Shown here: positions 3,395 through 52,508 of the stretch, in pieces
How positions within the stretch are numbered: position 1 is the stretch's first letter
Layout: each line of letters begins with the position of its first letter
Source: Escherichia phage anhysbys
Sequence record: NC_052656.1
Reading direction: 5' to 3' (one strand)
Length of the DNA stretch: 64,000 nucleotides
Position numbers and translations under genes: made by a program
The notes under the pieces: generated by a model
Database searches by the model: none
What the model was told of the DNA's origin: nothing
Seen by the model: the letters and a program-made list of their open reading frames with translations, nothing else

Positions 3395-3666
3395 TGGATA
3401 GACAAACCTTAAAAACAATGGCAGATGCTACTAATTCTCCGTACTTTGAAAAAGTAAGTAAATTGGTAGCTCAAGCCGCAGAGGAAGGATATTATAACAT
3501 AAACATCCACAACCCAAGTCTTATACTAGAAATGCCAAGTGATAAAAAGATACAAGAGAGTATCTGTGAAGGTATTGTTAGTTACTGGCGCGAGCGTGGG
3601 TGTGGTGCAAACATGGCTTTAGACAGTGCAAACATTGTAAGATATATAAATATTTCTTGGGGGTGA
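3394..3666 (+). CDS. hypothetical protein
   Basis: 90-aa ORF. Confidence 0.45.
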   Translation: MDRQTLKTMADATNSPYFEKVSKLVAQAAEEGYYNINIHNPSLILEMPSDKKIQESICEGIVSYWRERGCGANMALDSANIVRYINISWG

Positions 3667-3670
3667 TTTT

Positions 3671-4282
3671 ATGATTCAATGCACTCATATCCAAATTACT
3701 TGGAGAGATGAACTTTACCATTTGGGACAATTTACTGTAGGGGAAACATACCCTATCATTAAACATAATCCTAACATCGCAAACTTTGACAGGATGGTTC
3801 TTGTTGAGGACGATCTAGGTCAAACTTATTCTTTAGATCTAAAATATCCGTTTTCTTACGGCTACGATTGGATCGTTACTTTTGAAGACGCGGAGGAAAA
3901 TAAAACAATGAACGAAAAAAATTCTTGGTATTATCGTTGCGAACTGCCGCCAGTAGGTGAAAAGGTTATCTTTGTTCCCGATTTGGAAAGATATTCTTGG
4001 GATAGTTCTTATTCTGTTCCTAAAGAAGGCACCGAAGTTGAAGTTATTGCACATCGCACAACTTCGCATGGTAACGACGTAGCAGTTGTTTTCTGGGATG
4101 ATGAAGGTGCTGCTTGTGCAGGTGGCTTTGTTGCAGGTAATTTTGAACCCCTGCCAGATCCTCTGAAGGAGGCAATTTTAGGCGTAGCTTCTTTTGGACT
4201 CTCTTACACGTCTGCACAAGAGATTGTAGAAGGTATTTTAAACGGTACCGTTCCAAACGAAATTTTCAAACAGATTAAATAA
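3671..4282 (+). CDS. hypothetical protein
   Basis: 203-aa ORF. Confidence 0.5.
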   Translation: MIQCTHIQITWRDELYHLGQFTVGETYPIIKHNPNIANFDRMVLVEDDLGQTYSLDLKYPFSYGYDWIVTFEDAEENKTMNEKNSWYYRCELPPVGEKVIFVPDLERYSWDSSYSVPKEGTEVEVIAHRTTSHGNDVAVVFWDDEGAACAGGFVAGNFEPLPDPLKEAILGVASFGLSYTSAQEIVEGILNGTVPNEIFKQIK

Positions 4283-4287
4283 CAGTT

Positions 4288-4313
4288 GCACCCCGTTCTT
4301 CGGGGTGTTATTG
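4288..4313 (+). terminator. intrinsic terminator-like hairpin
   Basis: GCACCCCG-ttctt-CGGGGTG stem-loop followed by T-rich tract. Confidence 0.45.
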
Positions 4314-4333
4314 TATACGTAAAGGAGGAGATA

Positions 4334-4672
4334 ATGTATTACACTGAAGACTACATACTGTATAACTTTTTTAAAGGCTGGTTGGAATGGGCGGAAAAAG
4401 CTCCTGTTGGAGATTGTGTTTTTCCTTGGGACTCTCGTCAAGGTTTGTGTCGTTGTTTGGAAGACTGGCTTATAACCACAAGCTACAACTCAGAAACTAA
4501 GAAATCTACATCACAAAGGTTAAAAATTTTATTTGAAGAAGATGGTTTAGATCCAATTTATCCTTTCGGTGAGGAAAGTTTCCACAATGGTCTTTTCCTT
4601 GGCACTCAACATTATGATAAAGATCGTGTAGATTGGGTAAAAGAAAAGGTAGCACAGTATGAATGGGGTTAA
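4334..4672 (+). CDS. hypothetical protein, paralog family 1
   Basis: ATG 4334 after aaggagg; C-terminal DKDRVDWVKEKV motif shared with ORFs at 191 and 3029. Confidence 0.5.
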   Translation: MYYTEDYILYNFFKGWLEWAEKAPVGDCVFPWDSRQGLCRCLEDWLITTSYNSETKKSTSQRLKILFEEDGLDPIYPFGEESFHNGLFLGTQHYDKDRVDWVKEKVAQYEWG

Positions 4673-4862
4673 GAATTATCACCGCTGGTTACAAAGCTAT
4701 CTTAAGAAATGTGAACTTGGTGTTCCAGGTTATACTTACGACACAGACGAGATCCTTGATGAAATGGAAGTTTGGTTTAAAGAACCTCGTGAGCTATTGG
4801 CAAATATTCTAATGGCTTGGGATGGTACGGCACAAAGCATCGAAGGGGGTAGAAATGAGTAA
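4659..4862 (+). CDS. hypothetical protein
   Basis: 67-aa ORF. Confidence 0.4.
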   Translation: MNGVKNYHRWLQSYLKKCELGVPGYTYDTDEILDEMEVWFKEPRELLANILMAWDGTAQSIEGGRNE

Positions 4863-5006
4863 GAAATTGTTTAATATTCGTGAGAATCGTGATGGATCGT
4901 TCTCTGTAGTCAATGAATTTAACGTTTCGGTTGGGACTTTTATTACTAAACGTCAAGCAGAACAAGTAAGAGATACTTTAAACAAGTAAATTTTTAAGGG
5001 GGACTT

Positions 5007-19469: not shown

Positions 19470-19514
19470 TATTAATCTCCTATGTTTAAGAAATGCCCCC
19501 GAAGGGGCAGTTTG

Positions 19515-20207
19515 TTAAATAGCGGTTCCTTCGAAATCCGCCACATTTACGAGATTAATATTTTCAGATTTAGAAGTCAAGTTGTTTTCTGCAACAGATT
19601 TTTCTTCAGTATCCGCCTCGTTACCTGCCACGTTACGAGGTTCTTCTTCACCGTAGGGATTACCGAATTTCAAAAGATTGATCAATTCTTCTTTGGAGAA
19701 GTTTTCTAAATCATCATCTGTTAATTCAATAATCTCGTCTTGTTCTTCAATAAATGTTTCACCACCAGAAAAAGCATCTCGCTTTTTAGCTACTTCCATA
19801 GCCTGTTCTGGTGTTGCTCCTGCATCAAGAGCAGCTAAAGCAAAGTCTGACCCGCTTCCTACCGCATAATATTCTTCATCAATCGGATATGCACGTGTTG
19901 GGTTGTTACCTTCGTGCAGGAAAATACGTCCGTCTGGATGAACAACAAGTGCAATAAACTCTTCATCTTCTTTATCTGGATCAGAGTGAATCATCAAACC
20001 AGGGACAGCATCACGTGCTGCTTCGCACTGTAGATTTTGTTCAAACCATTGAAAGAAAGAAAGCACGGAGGTCAGACGACCAGCACCACCTACAAGGTAA
20101 TCTCCAATTTTTCGGACCTTTTTGAAATTAATAGAATCTACACGTCCACCAAAAGTTACCTTACCGTCACTCAAAATCTTATTTTTGGTCGCAATAATTG
20201 TCGTCAC
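19515..20207 (-). CDS. HslV / proteasome-beta-like Ntn-hydrolase peptidase
   Basis: N-terminal MTTIIATKNK (Thr nucleophile after Met), KVRKIGDYLVGGAG and AVGSGSDFALAAL align with HslV motifs; acidic C-terminal extension. Confidence 0.65.
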   Translation of the reverse strand: MTTIIATKNKILSDGKVTFGGRVDSINFKKVRKIGDYLVGGAGRLTSVLSFFQWFEQNLQCEAARDAVPGLMIHSDPDKEDEEFIALVVHPDGRIFLHEGNNPTRAYPIDEEYYAVGSGSDFALAALDAGATPEQAMEVAKKRDAFSGGETFIEEQDEIIELTDDDLENFSKEELINLLKFGNPYGEEEPRNVAGNEADTEEKSVAENNLTSKSENINLVNVADFEGTAI

Positions 20208-20710
20208 TATTCTTCCTCCTCTGTTAATGTTTTAAGAACCGCTTTCCCGCCATTCACATATTTGCAGATGTATTCTATCGCACGTAGTGTCTCTTTGTCA
20301 ACAAAAATTTGATCAGACGTTGCGAGCGGGTTATTAAGAAGATCACTGCAATCACGAACAAGCAGTGCTTTCTTATTAAACAAATTACTTAAGAACAGTA
20401 ACTTCGCCTCTTCTTCTGTTATGTGCAGAAGGCTAGGATCGGAGCCAGCTATTCCTATTATACAATCAAACAAGCTTTCTTTACTATCAGAAAGTTCTTG
20501 AAAATGGTTTAAAAGCCAATCTTCTCCTAGACACCAACATTTAAACATTTCCAGTTTATCTCGGAGGGTCATATTCTCTAAAGTAAGAGCAATCTCTTTT
20601 TCAATATGGTTTACACAAATTTGACGAAATTCGTTAGGTTTTACGAGTCCCGTTTGATAGCACTCATCTATACCGCTTCTTCCGATAGCTATTGTTGCTA
20701 CACCCATCAA
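20207..20710 (-). CDS. hypothetical protein
   Basis: 167-aa ORF. Confidence 0.45.
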   Translation of the reverse strand: MMGVATIAIGRSGIDECYQTGLVKPNEFRQICVNHIEKEIALTLENMTLRDKLEMFKCWCLGEDWLLNHFQELSDSKESLFDCIIGIAGSDPSLLHITEEEAKLLFLSNLFNKKALLVRDCSDLLNNPLATSDQIFVDKETLRAIEYICKYVNGGKAVLKTLTEEEE

Positions 20711-22462: not shown

Positions 22463-23304
22463 TACCTCTCCTTATTAAGTAATACTGCTAAAGACTGTTC
22501 AATACCTTTATTTAAATCTGATTTTGTAAGATAGTGACTGGTTACTAATTGTGACTTCACCGGACGTGCTGCTGGAGCATTATAGGTTGAAGCTGATACC
22601 GCCGATATCTTAACAGGTTCTGGCATCTGTGTCAAGATCTTTTCCGCAAACTCCGCCCAAGAAATAAAATGGCTTCCTGCAAAATGGTAAGTCTTAACAG
22701 ACCTTGACCAACCTGTTTTTAATACTTCAAAAATAGCTTCTGCTAAATCTGGAGCATATGTTGGACAAGAGAACTGATCAGCAACAACAATAAAATCACG
22801 TTGTCCATCATTATAGCGAGACAACATGGTTTTTAGAAAGTTATTTCCAAATTCGCTATATACCGAGGCTGTTCGAATAATATATGCATTTGGGTTAACT
22901 CCTCGCACCATTTTTTCACCGAGTTCTTTCGTATACCCATAATTGTTTATTGGGTTAGGTGTAGTATCTTCAAAAATAGGATGAGAATAATTAAAAATAT
23001 AATCTGTAGAAATATGCACAAAATCAATTTTAAGTTTGCTGCACACTGCCGCAATATTTGCAGGTCCATACGCATTAACAGCCAAAGCAGTAGCAAAATC
23101 ATGTTCTGCTTTATCTACAGCCGTATAAGCAGCGCAGTTAATAACACCGTCTACATAATCTTCAACAATAGCGTTTCGCACAGCTTCAAAATTTGTAATA
23201 TCTACACGTTCTTTAGGATAAATTAAAGATACATTCGAAGGAACCACTTTACGTAAAGCTTGTCCCAGTTGTCCATTACCACCTAATACCAGATATGTTA
23301 GCAT
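22462..23304 (-). CDS. rmlD: dTDP-4-dehydrorhamnose reductase
   Basis: LVLGGNGQLG NAD(P)-binding N-terminus, AAYTAVDKAE, STDYIF, YGYTK, FSCPTYAPDLA characteristic of RmlD. Confidence 0.8.
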   Translation of the reverse strand: MLTYLVLGGNGQLGQALRKVVPSNVSLIYPKERVDITNFEAVRNAIVEDYVDGVINCAAYTAVDKAEHDFATALAVNAYGPANIAAVCSKLKIDFVHISTDYIFNYSHPIFEDTTPNPINNYGYTKELGEKMVRGVNPNAYIIRTASVYSEFGNNFLKTMLSRYNDGQRDFIVVADQFSCPTYAPDLAEAIFEVLKTGWSRSVKTYHFAGSHFISWAEFAEKILTQMPEPVKISAVSASTYNAPAARPVKSQLVTSHYLTKSDLNKGIEQSLAVLLNKER

Positions 23305-23864
23305 ACACCCTCACTACGTAGCTGTTGAAAAGATTTAGCCATTGCATCTTTTGTTGATAAAATAGGTTTAAAATCTTCATCAAAAATCATATCAAAGCCC
23401 CAATCGATCCCTATATCAGGATCATCCCAACGTAAACTTTGTTCACTAGAAGGGTCGTATGGAGTTGTGCATTTGTATTCAAAGATAGCATCCATACTCA
23501 AAACTATAAAACCGTGTGCCAAACCAGGTGGAAGCCAAAACTGCGTATGGTGTCGTGCACGAAGAACAACACCGTCCCAAGCACCGTAAGTTGGACTATC
23601 TTTACGTAAATCTACAGCGAAATCCAATACTTCTCCACTTACACAACGAACAAGCTTACCTTGCGGGTTGTTTGTTTGGAAGTGCATTCCTCGCAAAACA
23701 CCGAAGTTTGATTTAGACATGTTATCTTGAACGAAAGTTTGTCTACCAATAATATCTTCGTATTTTTGTTCATTGTATGTTTCTAAAAAGAAACCACGAT
23801 CATCTTTATAAACGTCTGGTTTGATAATTACCGCACCTTCAATTTTTGTTTTTTCTACTTTCAT
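23298..23864 (-). CDS. rmlC: dTDP-4-dehydrorhamnose 3,5-epimerase
   Basis: DDRGFFLETYN, LRGMHFQ, AWDGVVL, PPGLAHGF characteristic of RmlC cupin. Confidence 0.8.
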   Translation of the reverse strand: MKVEKTKIEGAVIIKPDVYKDDRGFFLETYNEQKYEDIIGRQTFVQDNMSKSNFGVLRGMHFQTNNPQGKLVRCVSGEVLDFAVDLRKDSPTYGAWDGVVLRARHHTQFWLPPGLAHGFIVLSMDAIFEYKCTTPYDPSSEQSLRWDDPDIGIDWGFDMIFDEDFKPILSTKDAMAKSFQQLRSEGVC

Positions 23865-23873
23865 TTTCTCTCC

Positions 23874-24200
23874 TTACCAGACATGTTGAGAAATAATAGT
23901 TTCCGTTTTAATGTTATATTTTTCAAGTAGCTCTGCATAGGCTTCTTTTGCATTCTCATTTAATTGCTCAAGATCTACAGCTACGCTTCCTTCTCCGCCT
24001 TCTAAATAAATACCATATATGCAATAAGACTCATCAGCATCGTAGAAAGGAGAGATGCGACTTAAGTCCAGACCTTCTTGTAAGAACCAGTTAAAATCTC
24101 CGTCAAATTCTTCTTCAATTCTAGGATCTTCTCCTACAGCCTCTTCCCACTTATTAAAAGGTGCACCCTGTAACATACGCCATTCGATATCAATACCCAT
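23874..24200 (-). CDS. hypothetical protein
   Basis: 108-aa ORF. Confidence 0.45.
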   Translation of the reverse strand: MGIDIEWRMLQGAPFNKWEEAVGEDPRIEEEFDGDFNWFLQEGLDLSRISPFYDADESYCIYGIYLEGGEGSVAVDLEQLNENAKEAYAELLEKYNIKTETIISQHVW

Positions 24201-24495
24201 TTTTCATCTCCTCCTCTTCTTGAGCAGCTTTAATAATTGCTTCATAAATATCGTAAGCAATGCCTCCACAACATCTAGCTTCGAAAGCTATTGCTTCTGC
24301 AATGTGGTCTGTTAATTCTCGTGGAATTCGGACATACTCTTTTTCACTCTCCATCTTCTACCTCCGACCCTGCTTTTTCAAATACTACTACTCGTCCTTC
24401 ACCATGACAATTCAGGCAAGGAAATGTTACCATAATTTCCACTTCCATCTGTCCAGTCCCACCACACACAGGACAAAAAATAAGTTTTTCAGCCA

Positions 24496-24705
24496 TTATT
24501 CCTCCTTAATTATTTCAAACTTGGCAACACCATTTACAATAATATGACCACAAGACATAACTCCTAGCCAAGGATCGCCGTTTTTCTTCAGGCGTTTACC
24601 GAATACATCACAAAAACCATTCTTCATTTCGGAGGCTTCATAAGAAGCCCCTTTGTCAAAAACGTCTTTGAATGTGTCGATTATACCAACACATCTCAAA
24701 ATCAT
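24496..24705 (-). CDS. hypothetical protein
   Basis: 69-aa ORF. Confidence 0.4.
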   Translation of the reverse strand: MILRCVGIIDTFKDVFDKGASYEASEMKNGFCDVFGKRLKKNGDPWLGVMSCGHIIVNGVAKFEIIKEE

Positions 24706-52028: not shown

Positions 52029-52508
52029 ATGGAACTCAATAAAGATACACTGTGGGAACTCTTCAAAACCTTCGCTGGTTTTAAAGAGAATTCTGAATCC
52101 CAACAAGATTCTATACCATCTCAAAAACCTGAAACTCTAGTCAAACAAAATAAATTTGATGAAGAAAAGATGCAGGTTATTGAGGTCTTGTATTGTCCAC
52201 CTGAAGAAGACGATCTCCACGGAGAGCGCATGTCTGATTTGGAAATCAGGAAGATGGTTGACAACTTCAATGAGAATATTACCAATATTAGCGGTAATCT
52301 TGGTCACATGAAGAACACCGATAAGTTTGCTCCAATTAAAGCTTGGGTAAATGAAGTCGATTGTTACATTGGTGACGAACTCGTTGTGGAAGGAACTCCC
52401 CTCGTTAAAATCCAATTCAACGACCCTGAATTATATCAAGCTCGTAAAGACGGCGTTCTTAAAGGTTTGAGTATAGGCGCAATGGGCGTTAAAGTCAAGA
52501 AGGACTAA
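52029..52508 (+). CDS. putative head morphogenesis / prohead protease-like protein
   Basis: 159 aa between portal and scaffold genes; assignment is positional. Confidence 0.35.
   Translation: MELNKDTLWELFKTFAGFKENSESQQDSIPSQKPETLVKQNKFDEEKMQVIEVLYCPPEEDDLHGERMSDLEIRKMVDNFNENITNISGNLGHMKNTDKFAPIKAWVNEVDCYIGDELVVEGTPLVKIQFNDPELYQARKDGVLKGLSIGAMGVKVKKD

Follow-up and report, generated by a model that had tools for sequence, protein, structure and literature searches.

A proteasome-like N-terminal-threonine peptidase with a hairpin-and-acidic-tail extension, predicted from the genome of Escherichia phage anhysbys

The 64,000-nt stretch of the genome of Escherichia phage anhysbys analysed here as a single window (sequence record NC_052656.1) contains, on the minus strand of positions 19515..20207, a complete coding sequence for a proteasome-like N-terminal-threonine peptidase of the PPH/HslV type, as judged from the list of open reading frames and the matches to PF00227 and PHROG 1040. 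The frame opens with a GTG codon and closes with a TAA at 19515-19517, and its 230-aa product begins with (M)TTIIATKNK. A previous sequence-only reading had already pointed to the threonine that follows the initiator methionine, to which it should be added that the gene lies on the minus strand, as well as to the GGAG and GSGS segments, which the translation places at residues 40-43 and 117-120, respectively. Direct reading of the sequence reveals a Shine-Dalgarno motif (GGAGGA, 20214..20219, minus strand) 6 nt 5' of the GTG, which in turn overlaps by one base the TAG stop codon (TAGTG) of an upstream frame of 167 aa, hereafter ORF X (20207..20710, minus strand; open reading frame list and match to PHROG 14834). 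The assignment of the GTG start is well supported by this Shine-Dalgarno motif and stop/start overlap. An M-T-T N-terminus is present in every peptidase homologue compared.

The flanks of the gene carry two further candidate elements. A consensus scan detected a sigma-70-like promoter sequence (TTGACA-18-TAGAAT, 11 of 12 matches; 20272..20301, minus strand) within the 3' end of ORF X, about 65 nt ahead of the peptidase start codon, which should be regarded as a candidate only, since the total of promoter-like sites found by the scan across the region was not above that of shuffled controls. On the other side, a terminator scan together with inspection of the sequence revealed a GC-rich hairpin (TGCCCC-TTCG-GGGGCA, followed by the T-rich TTTCTTAAAC) at 19494..19509, listed on the minus strand and scored on both strands, which begins 5 nt past the peptidase stop codon. 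This element, whose GC-rich stem of 6 bp is perfect and closed by a UUCG tetraloop, occupies the 45-nt gap between the stop codon and the Shine-Dalgarno motif of the next gene, and as a match to the consensus could be a terminator or attenuator, or else an mRNA-stability element.

The peptidase gene belongs to a long leftward cluster that also encodes PhoH, a T4-type lysozyme, glutaredoxin, rhamnose-pathway proteins, NrdAB, thymidylate synthase, methyltransferases, a ligase and exonucleases, neighbours from which a pre-late ('early') expression can be inferred. In the surrounding 7 kb, many Escherichia phages classified in Phapecoctavirus (Stephanstirmvirinae) are 99.1-99.6% identical to the window, which belongs to a phAPEC8-like member of this genus, and the peptidase itself is 99.6% identical to Phapecoctavirus products that have been named 'peptidase HslV family', 'ATP-dependent protease subunit' or 'putative 20S proteasome', with phAPEC8 gp175 and phi92 gene 058 (77% identity) as examples from the databases. 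The same coliphage backbone occurs under other host names, as in 'Acinetobacter phage vB_AbaM_ABPW7' (99.4% identity over 7 kb), 'Pseudomonas phage PsgM04F' (86% protein identity) and several 'Campylobacter' phage records, the host labels of which look doubtful. Also in this cluster, at about 23300..24700, RmlD-like and RmlC-like genes are found without the RmlA/RmlB pair of about 1.9 kb present in phAPEC8 (38.5-40.4 kb), BI-EHEC and SKA64, which is an indel polymorphism in the dTDP-rhamnose cassette.

Three genes of these phages were considered as potential partners of the peptidase. The pairing of ORF X and the peptidase recurs in phi92, FBKp34 and a metagenomic relative (29-65% identity), and ORF X, for which no Pfam or PDB match was found, would be a possible co-translated partner or regulator, judging from this arrangement. 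As a general conserved partner it was discarded, given that the overlap is confined to Stephanstirmvirinae-like phages and that unrelated genes lie upstream in Vibrio and Aeromonas phages. PhoH is encoded one to a few genes upstream of the peptidase in phages of E. coli, Klebsiella, Vibrio and Aeromonas, all of them sharing a syntenic lysozyme-PhoH-...-peptidase backbone, and it is not found beside the short forms of the peptidase in Caulobacter, Rhizobium and Rhodobacter phages, a distribution that we read as shared ancestry and not as a functional partnership. Finally, the only classical AAA ATPase of phAPEC8, gp014, with a weak similarity to Rix7/VCP (E ~1e-3), was rejected as an unfoldase partner because its distribution, which includes Herelleviridae and other phages lacking the peptidase, does not track that of the peptidase. 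The gp014 gene (PF00004), which maps at 139.0-141.4 kb of phAPEC8, outside the window, adjoins a zinc-finger 'endonuclease' with a CapR-homology domain, and the pair is common in part to Herelleviridae and jumbo phages.

With regard to the family of the protein, Pfam PF00227 (Proteasome) matches it with 25.6 bits, above the gathering score of 22.4, and PHROG 1040 ('peptidase HslV family') covers residues 1-229 with E=1.6e-63. HslV chains of the PDB were recovered with E=4.9e-9 from the single sequence and 1e-14 from a profile of 38 homologues, the alignment of which runs from Thr1 of T. maritima HslV to its C-terminal end and stops at about residue 155-160 of the phage protein. The same profile also matches 20S beta5 subunits through residues 113-169 (~1e-10), and HslV and 20S beta chains together fall between 1e-14 and 1e-8, so that the similarity to the proteasome/HslV family is, as far as sequence comparison goes, far above chance. 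An AlphaFold2 (AF2) model built from an 83-sequence alignment reached a mean pLDDT of 88, with values >90 through residue 180 (38.6 for the single sequence), and shows the alpha-beta-beta-alpha sandwich typical of Ntn hydrolases. Profile and fold searches thus agree in placing the protein among the proteasome/HslV Ntn hydrolases (MEROPS T1), as the sequence-only reading had proposed, and not in an unrelated family.

The catalytic Ntn core, residues 1-155 (19743..20207, minus strand), carries the set of residues expected for such an enzyme: Thr2, the nucleophile after removal of the methionine, Asp14, Lys30, Gly43, Gly117-Ser118-Gly119 and Asp144-x-x-Ser147-Gly148-Gly149. In the alignments these correspond to proteasome Thr1, Asp17, Lys33, Gly47, Ser129 and the support residues of the Asp166/Ser169 type, which includes the Thr/Lys/Asp alignment that had been anticipated. 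The 38 homologues (26-80% identity) show no variation at T2, T3, I4, D14, K30, G117, S118 and G119; in a set of 83 sequences, each representing a 50%-identity cluster, K30, G43, G117 and G119 are invariant, and T2, T3, D14, S118, D144, G148 and G149 are conserved in >=90%. Moreover, the core is under purifying selection, with a dN/dS of ~0.08-0.10 with respect to phi92, ECGD1 and FKP3. Both the conserved catalytic set and this low dN/dS argue that the phage protein is almost certainly an active enzyme, and not a decayed copy.

Beyond the core, residues 156-230 form an extension of 75 aa with 27% D/E and a net charge of -15. The D/E-rich extension of roughly 80 residues beyond HslV that had been described is therefore real, but its first ~30 residues correspond to a conserved helical hairpin and not to a plain acidic stretch. 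This proximal part, an acidic linker plus a two-helix hairpin (residues 156-185; 19653..19742, minus strand), was delimited from the AF2 model, motif conservation and divergence. The hairpin itself (about residues 160-182) is predicted as two helices at 164-169 and 172-181 with a pLDDT of 91-94, and 57 long-form representatives share in this region the motif L-T-(R/K)-E-x-(L/A)-x-x-(M/L)-(S/T)-K-E-E-L-(L/I)-x-x-(L/I)-(F/L)-(G/P), or in a simpler form L-T-x-E-x-L-x-x-(M/F)-(S/T)-K-E-E-L-(L/I)-x-x-L-x-(G/P), with acidic runs on its flanks. Synonymous divergence is saturated in this part, and the non-synonymous divergence lies far below it. On the other hand, the acidic distal tail (residues 186-230; 19518..19652, minus strand), defined by pLDDT, dN/dS and charge conservation, is predicted to be disordered (pLDDT 53-56) and evolves in an almost neutral way, with a dN/dS of ~0.7-1.5, which is why part of it could be dispensable. 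The tail is nevertheless net negative in 55 of the 57 long-form lineages (median charge -15, 26% D/E, length of 25-195 residues), and within Stephanstirmvirinae it contains small recurring islands, such as R-x-(L/V)-A-G-(E/N) and a (V/I/L)-N-L-like hydrophobic patch. No known domain was detected by Pfam with either the tail alone or the long-tailed relatives as queries, and remoter relatives carry longer and partly structured C-terminal regions, also without a Pfam match.

A second feature of the long forms is an insertion of 10-12 residues at positions 61-75, that is, at the end of helix H1 and the following loop, whereas the short forms lack it. The loop shows the conserved residues P69, L71, I73 and P76. 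Because the insertion and the hairpin co-occur, the latter probably packs on the remodelled H1/loop face, next to the insertion and where helix H2 of other family members would lie. As a separate observation, the synonymous divergence of the distal tail (19518..19652) with respect to phage PsgM04F is 0.19, compared to 0.76-1.0 elsewhere in the gene, a value that comes from a small sample of 44 codons and suggests either a within-gene recombination breakpoint or some constraint at the DNA level.

The family is widespread among phages. A homologue is present in 232 phage records, and the clade has diversified deeply in phages of Escherichia, Klebsiella, Vibrio, Aeromonas, Caulobacter and Rhizobium. 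Exhaustive comparison with 1.84 billion cluster representatives yielded 2,334 relatives at E<=1e-3, the best of which, after the long-form orthologues, are proteins of 130-160 aa that align over the whole core with 36-41% identity and ~60-80 bits, compared to 39 bits for the best HslV. At the structural level, 46 viral clusters with the peptidase fold were found in BFVD, one of them being a 131-aa protein of CcrColossus that superposes at a TM of 0.89. Among 185,579 bacterial genomes, each representing a species, a pattern scan revealed no close relative except for one contig of 425 bp, the remaining hits being distant members of different proteasome-like families, such as a Ser-start protein in a bacterial context. 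The exceptional contig (JAPMLR010000072.1, 'Lysobacteraceae bacterium JHOS43') is 100% identical to residues 68-208 of the phage peptidase and is almost certainly a phage contamination of the bacterial assembly.

Two groups of proteasome-like proteins defined bioinformatically by Fuchs, Alva and Lupas in 2021 (PMC8665760) are relevant for the classification of this protein: the proteasome homologs of phages and their hosts (PPH) and the RPC proteins. PPH, with WP_042125023.1 as reference, occur in tailed phages and prophage regions and are proteins of ~140 residues with neither helix H2 nor a propeptide (PMC8665760). RPC proteins, with WP_140207863 as reference, have been reported only from Proteobacteria and combine a PPH-related core with a C-terminal region of unmatched structure; they are more divergent from PPH, and their outward-facing C-termini have been suggested as interaction sites (PMC8665760). 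As with PPH, the phage gene described here belongs to a tailed phage and encodes a protein with a Met-Thr start, and hence no propeptide, a compact core and no H2. It also falls within the group I of proteasome-like proteins, together with HslV and the beta-proteobacterial proteasome homologue BPH, and its best non-orthologous matches are the PPH-type proteins of 130-160 aa. In contrast to the ~140 residues of PPH, however, the phage protein has 230 aa, with a core of 155 residues, 10-12 of them extra at the end of H1 and its loop, and a C-terminal hairpin plus acidic tail of 75 residues. The short relatives, with a median core of 144, fit the size of PPH, and the long phage protein is an extended form, which fits with PPH by its features rather than by clustering with the reference sequences. 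The absence of H2 and the extra C-terminal region with no match to known structures are shared with RPC, a comparison made by description, but unlike RPC the protein belongs to a phage, and its scores against PPH-like proteins are good. Finally, BPH (PDB 5ovs) is also a stand-alone peptidase with no known unfoldase partner, and it is likewise acidic outside its core, in the functionally important pore loop.

A protein whose closest solved structure, either by sequence or by fold, is HslV could be taken for an HslV orthologue captured from the host, which would dock host HslU as a hybrid ATP-dependent protease, or would titrate or poison HslUV, re-targeting proteolysis. The MTTI... N-terminus, identical to that of E. 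coli HslV, the availability of HslU in the E. coli host and the database names already mentioned are all in line with this idea, which seems unlikely in view of the remaining data. Identity to HslVs is only 20-34%, and the small phage proteins score higher. In the AF2 model, a long helix H1 (residues 45-67) leads to a coil (residues 68-83, pLDDT >90), so that, where HslV has the two apical helices H1 and H2, the phage protein aligns a Pro-containing loop to the H2 segment, on the apical, HslU-facing side; H2 is a helix that we take to help form the HslU-docking face of HslV. Compared to HslV, the S1-S2 hairpin lacks 4 residues and the H3-H4 region ~9, and the C-terminal hairpin and the acidic tail are extra. 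Lys28 of E. coli HslV, which reportedly sits in the pocket that receives the C-terminal tail of HslU, aligns to Ser25 of the phage protein, in a variable column with Ser in 46% of the long forms, and the loss of this lysine, presumably a contact with the HslU C-terminus, weakens the case for an orthologue. Moreover, the phage family conserves a D-x-x-S-G-G motif that 20S beta subunits also have and that HslV replaces by unrelated residues, and the deep diversification of the family in phages points to a long phage residence over a recent capture. No HslU- or Clp-like gene was found adjacent to the peptidase or across the annotated phAPEC8 genome. The original proposal of an HslV or proteasome-like peptidase thus holds in its proteasome-like half, but not as an HslV orthologue, in view of the H2 segment, the missing Lys28, the D-x-x-S-G-G and the absence of an encoded HslU; sequence and model agree on a proteasome-like protein of a phage-resident clade and not a true HslV. 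In any case, some residual interaction with host HslU may occur, HslV being the best match in the PDB.

Another function to be considered for a phage peptidase is that of a prohead protease for capsid maturation, or of some other virion-assembly protease. Large myoviruses need a maturation protease, and none of the phAPEC8 products is called a head protease in RefSeq. However, a 159-aa frame of the Peptidase_S78_2 (XkdF-type) family (52029..52508, plus strand; Pfam, 44.9 bits), which also matches PHROG families of 'head maturation protease', directly follows the portal gene and precedes the scaffold-like, decoration and major capsid genes; from family and position, it is the expected prohead protease. 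The threonine peptidase gene, in turn, maps to the nucleotide-metabolism and replication cluster, amid lysozyme, PhoH, Nrd and methyltransferase genes, ~32 kb away from the head module and on the other strand, just as its short relatives in Caulobacter, Rhizobium and Rhodobacter phages are encoded outside head modules too. A role as head protease, which the sequence-only reading had already considered improbable from the distance to the head genes, is in this way effectively refuted. The remaining alternatives concern what the Ntn fold is used for. It is conceivable, though not what we would expect, that it serves a different chemistry, as in a connectase-like sequence-specific transpeptidase or ligase, an amidase with a small molecule or a protein modification as its substrate, or an enzyme that processes a single site, and it might do so as a monomer or small oligomer. 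Even more speculative would be an autonomous 'activator-in-cis', in which the hairpin fills the H2 site and substitutes for the docking of an unfoldase, while a ring of 12-14 outward-pointing polyanionic tails mimics nucleic acid and captures basic DNA/RNA-binding host proteins for degradation, such as nucleoid proteins, restriction and other defence nucleases, or RNA polymerase factors. If true, the phage would have built its own ATP-independent degrader of selected targets, to be used in host takeover or counter-defence. As for the S78-type frame itself, its best PHROG (1530) and the RefSeq record of phAPEC8 (gp117) carry the label 'DNA methyltransferase', which is probably a propagated mis-annotation.

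The explanation that we consider probable as a whole is that of a phage-resident, PPH-like N-terminal-threonine (Ntn) peptidase, independent of HslU, with a two-part tail and a pre-late intracellular role. Its maturation would start with the removal of the initiator methionine by the host methionine aminopeptidase, which would expose Thr2 as the nucleophile; Asp14 and Lys30 would complete the triad, with Gly43 as the oxyanion hole and Ser118, Asp144 and Ser147 supporting the site. The protein is expected to self-assemble into a ring or barrel enclosing the active sites, because every characterised relative does so, and activity would be expected only after this assembly. The resulting particle would most likely work without host HslU, since a loop takes the place of H2 at the HslU-docking face and the phage annotation lists no gene of the HslU or Clp type. 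The helical hairpin would act as a structural or docking element, whereas the disordered polyanionic tail would point away from the assembly and serve in interactions or regulation. Finally, the location of the gene in the nucleotide-metabolism and replication cluster, and not in the head module, indicates that the peptidase most likely acts inside the cell before the late phase, with proteins or peptides of the host or the phage as substrates, rather than in capsid maturation.

Phage 'HslV' genes without HslU have been mentioned in genome papers (PMC7823757; PMC12210895), and the gene described here was already annotated and its phage clade already surveyed, so that its identification is correct and already known. 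What can be added is the anatomy of the extended form, together with the grounds for discarding the obvious partners and a head-protease role. Hundreds of phages carry a proteasome homologue, and the literature searched contained no experimental study, either biochemical or genetic, of any phage HslV/PPH member. When lytic phages encode proteases away from the head module, host takeover and anti-defence are candidate functions for them, and the present one offers a tractable model, as a strongly conserved gene of an E. coli phage with a mutable Thr2 and a modular tail that can be deleted piecewise. The loss of H2, the co-occurring insertion at the end of H1, the hairpin motif and the compositionally conserved acidic tail provide both constructs and hypotheses for such work.

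A last observation is related to Aeromonas phage 4L372D, which contains two proteasome-like genes in tandem (3432-3983 and 4001-4885 of the sequence compared). The first one encodes a divergent protein of 183 aa with a (M)TCIIAL start, its own Thr/Asp/Lys, a G-C-G loop and a match to PHROG 1040 (E=1e-25), and the second one a long-tailed form of 294 aa, a tandem pair that hints at a possible two-subunit assembly in some phages.
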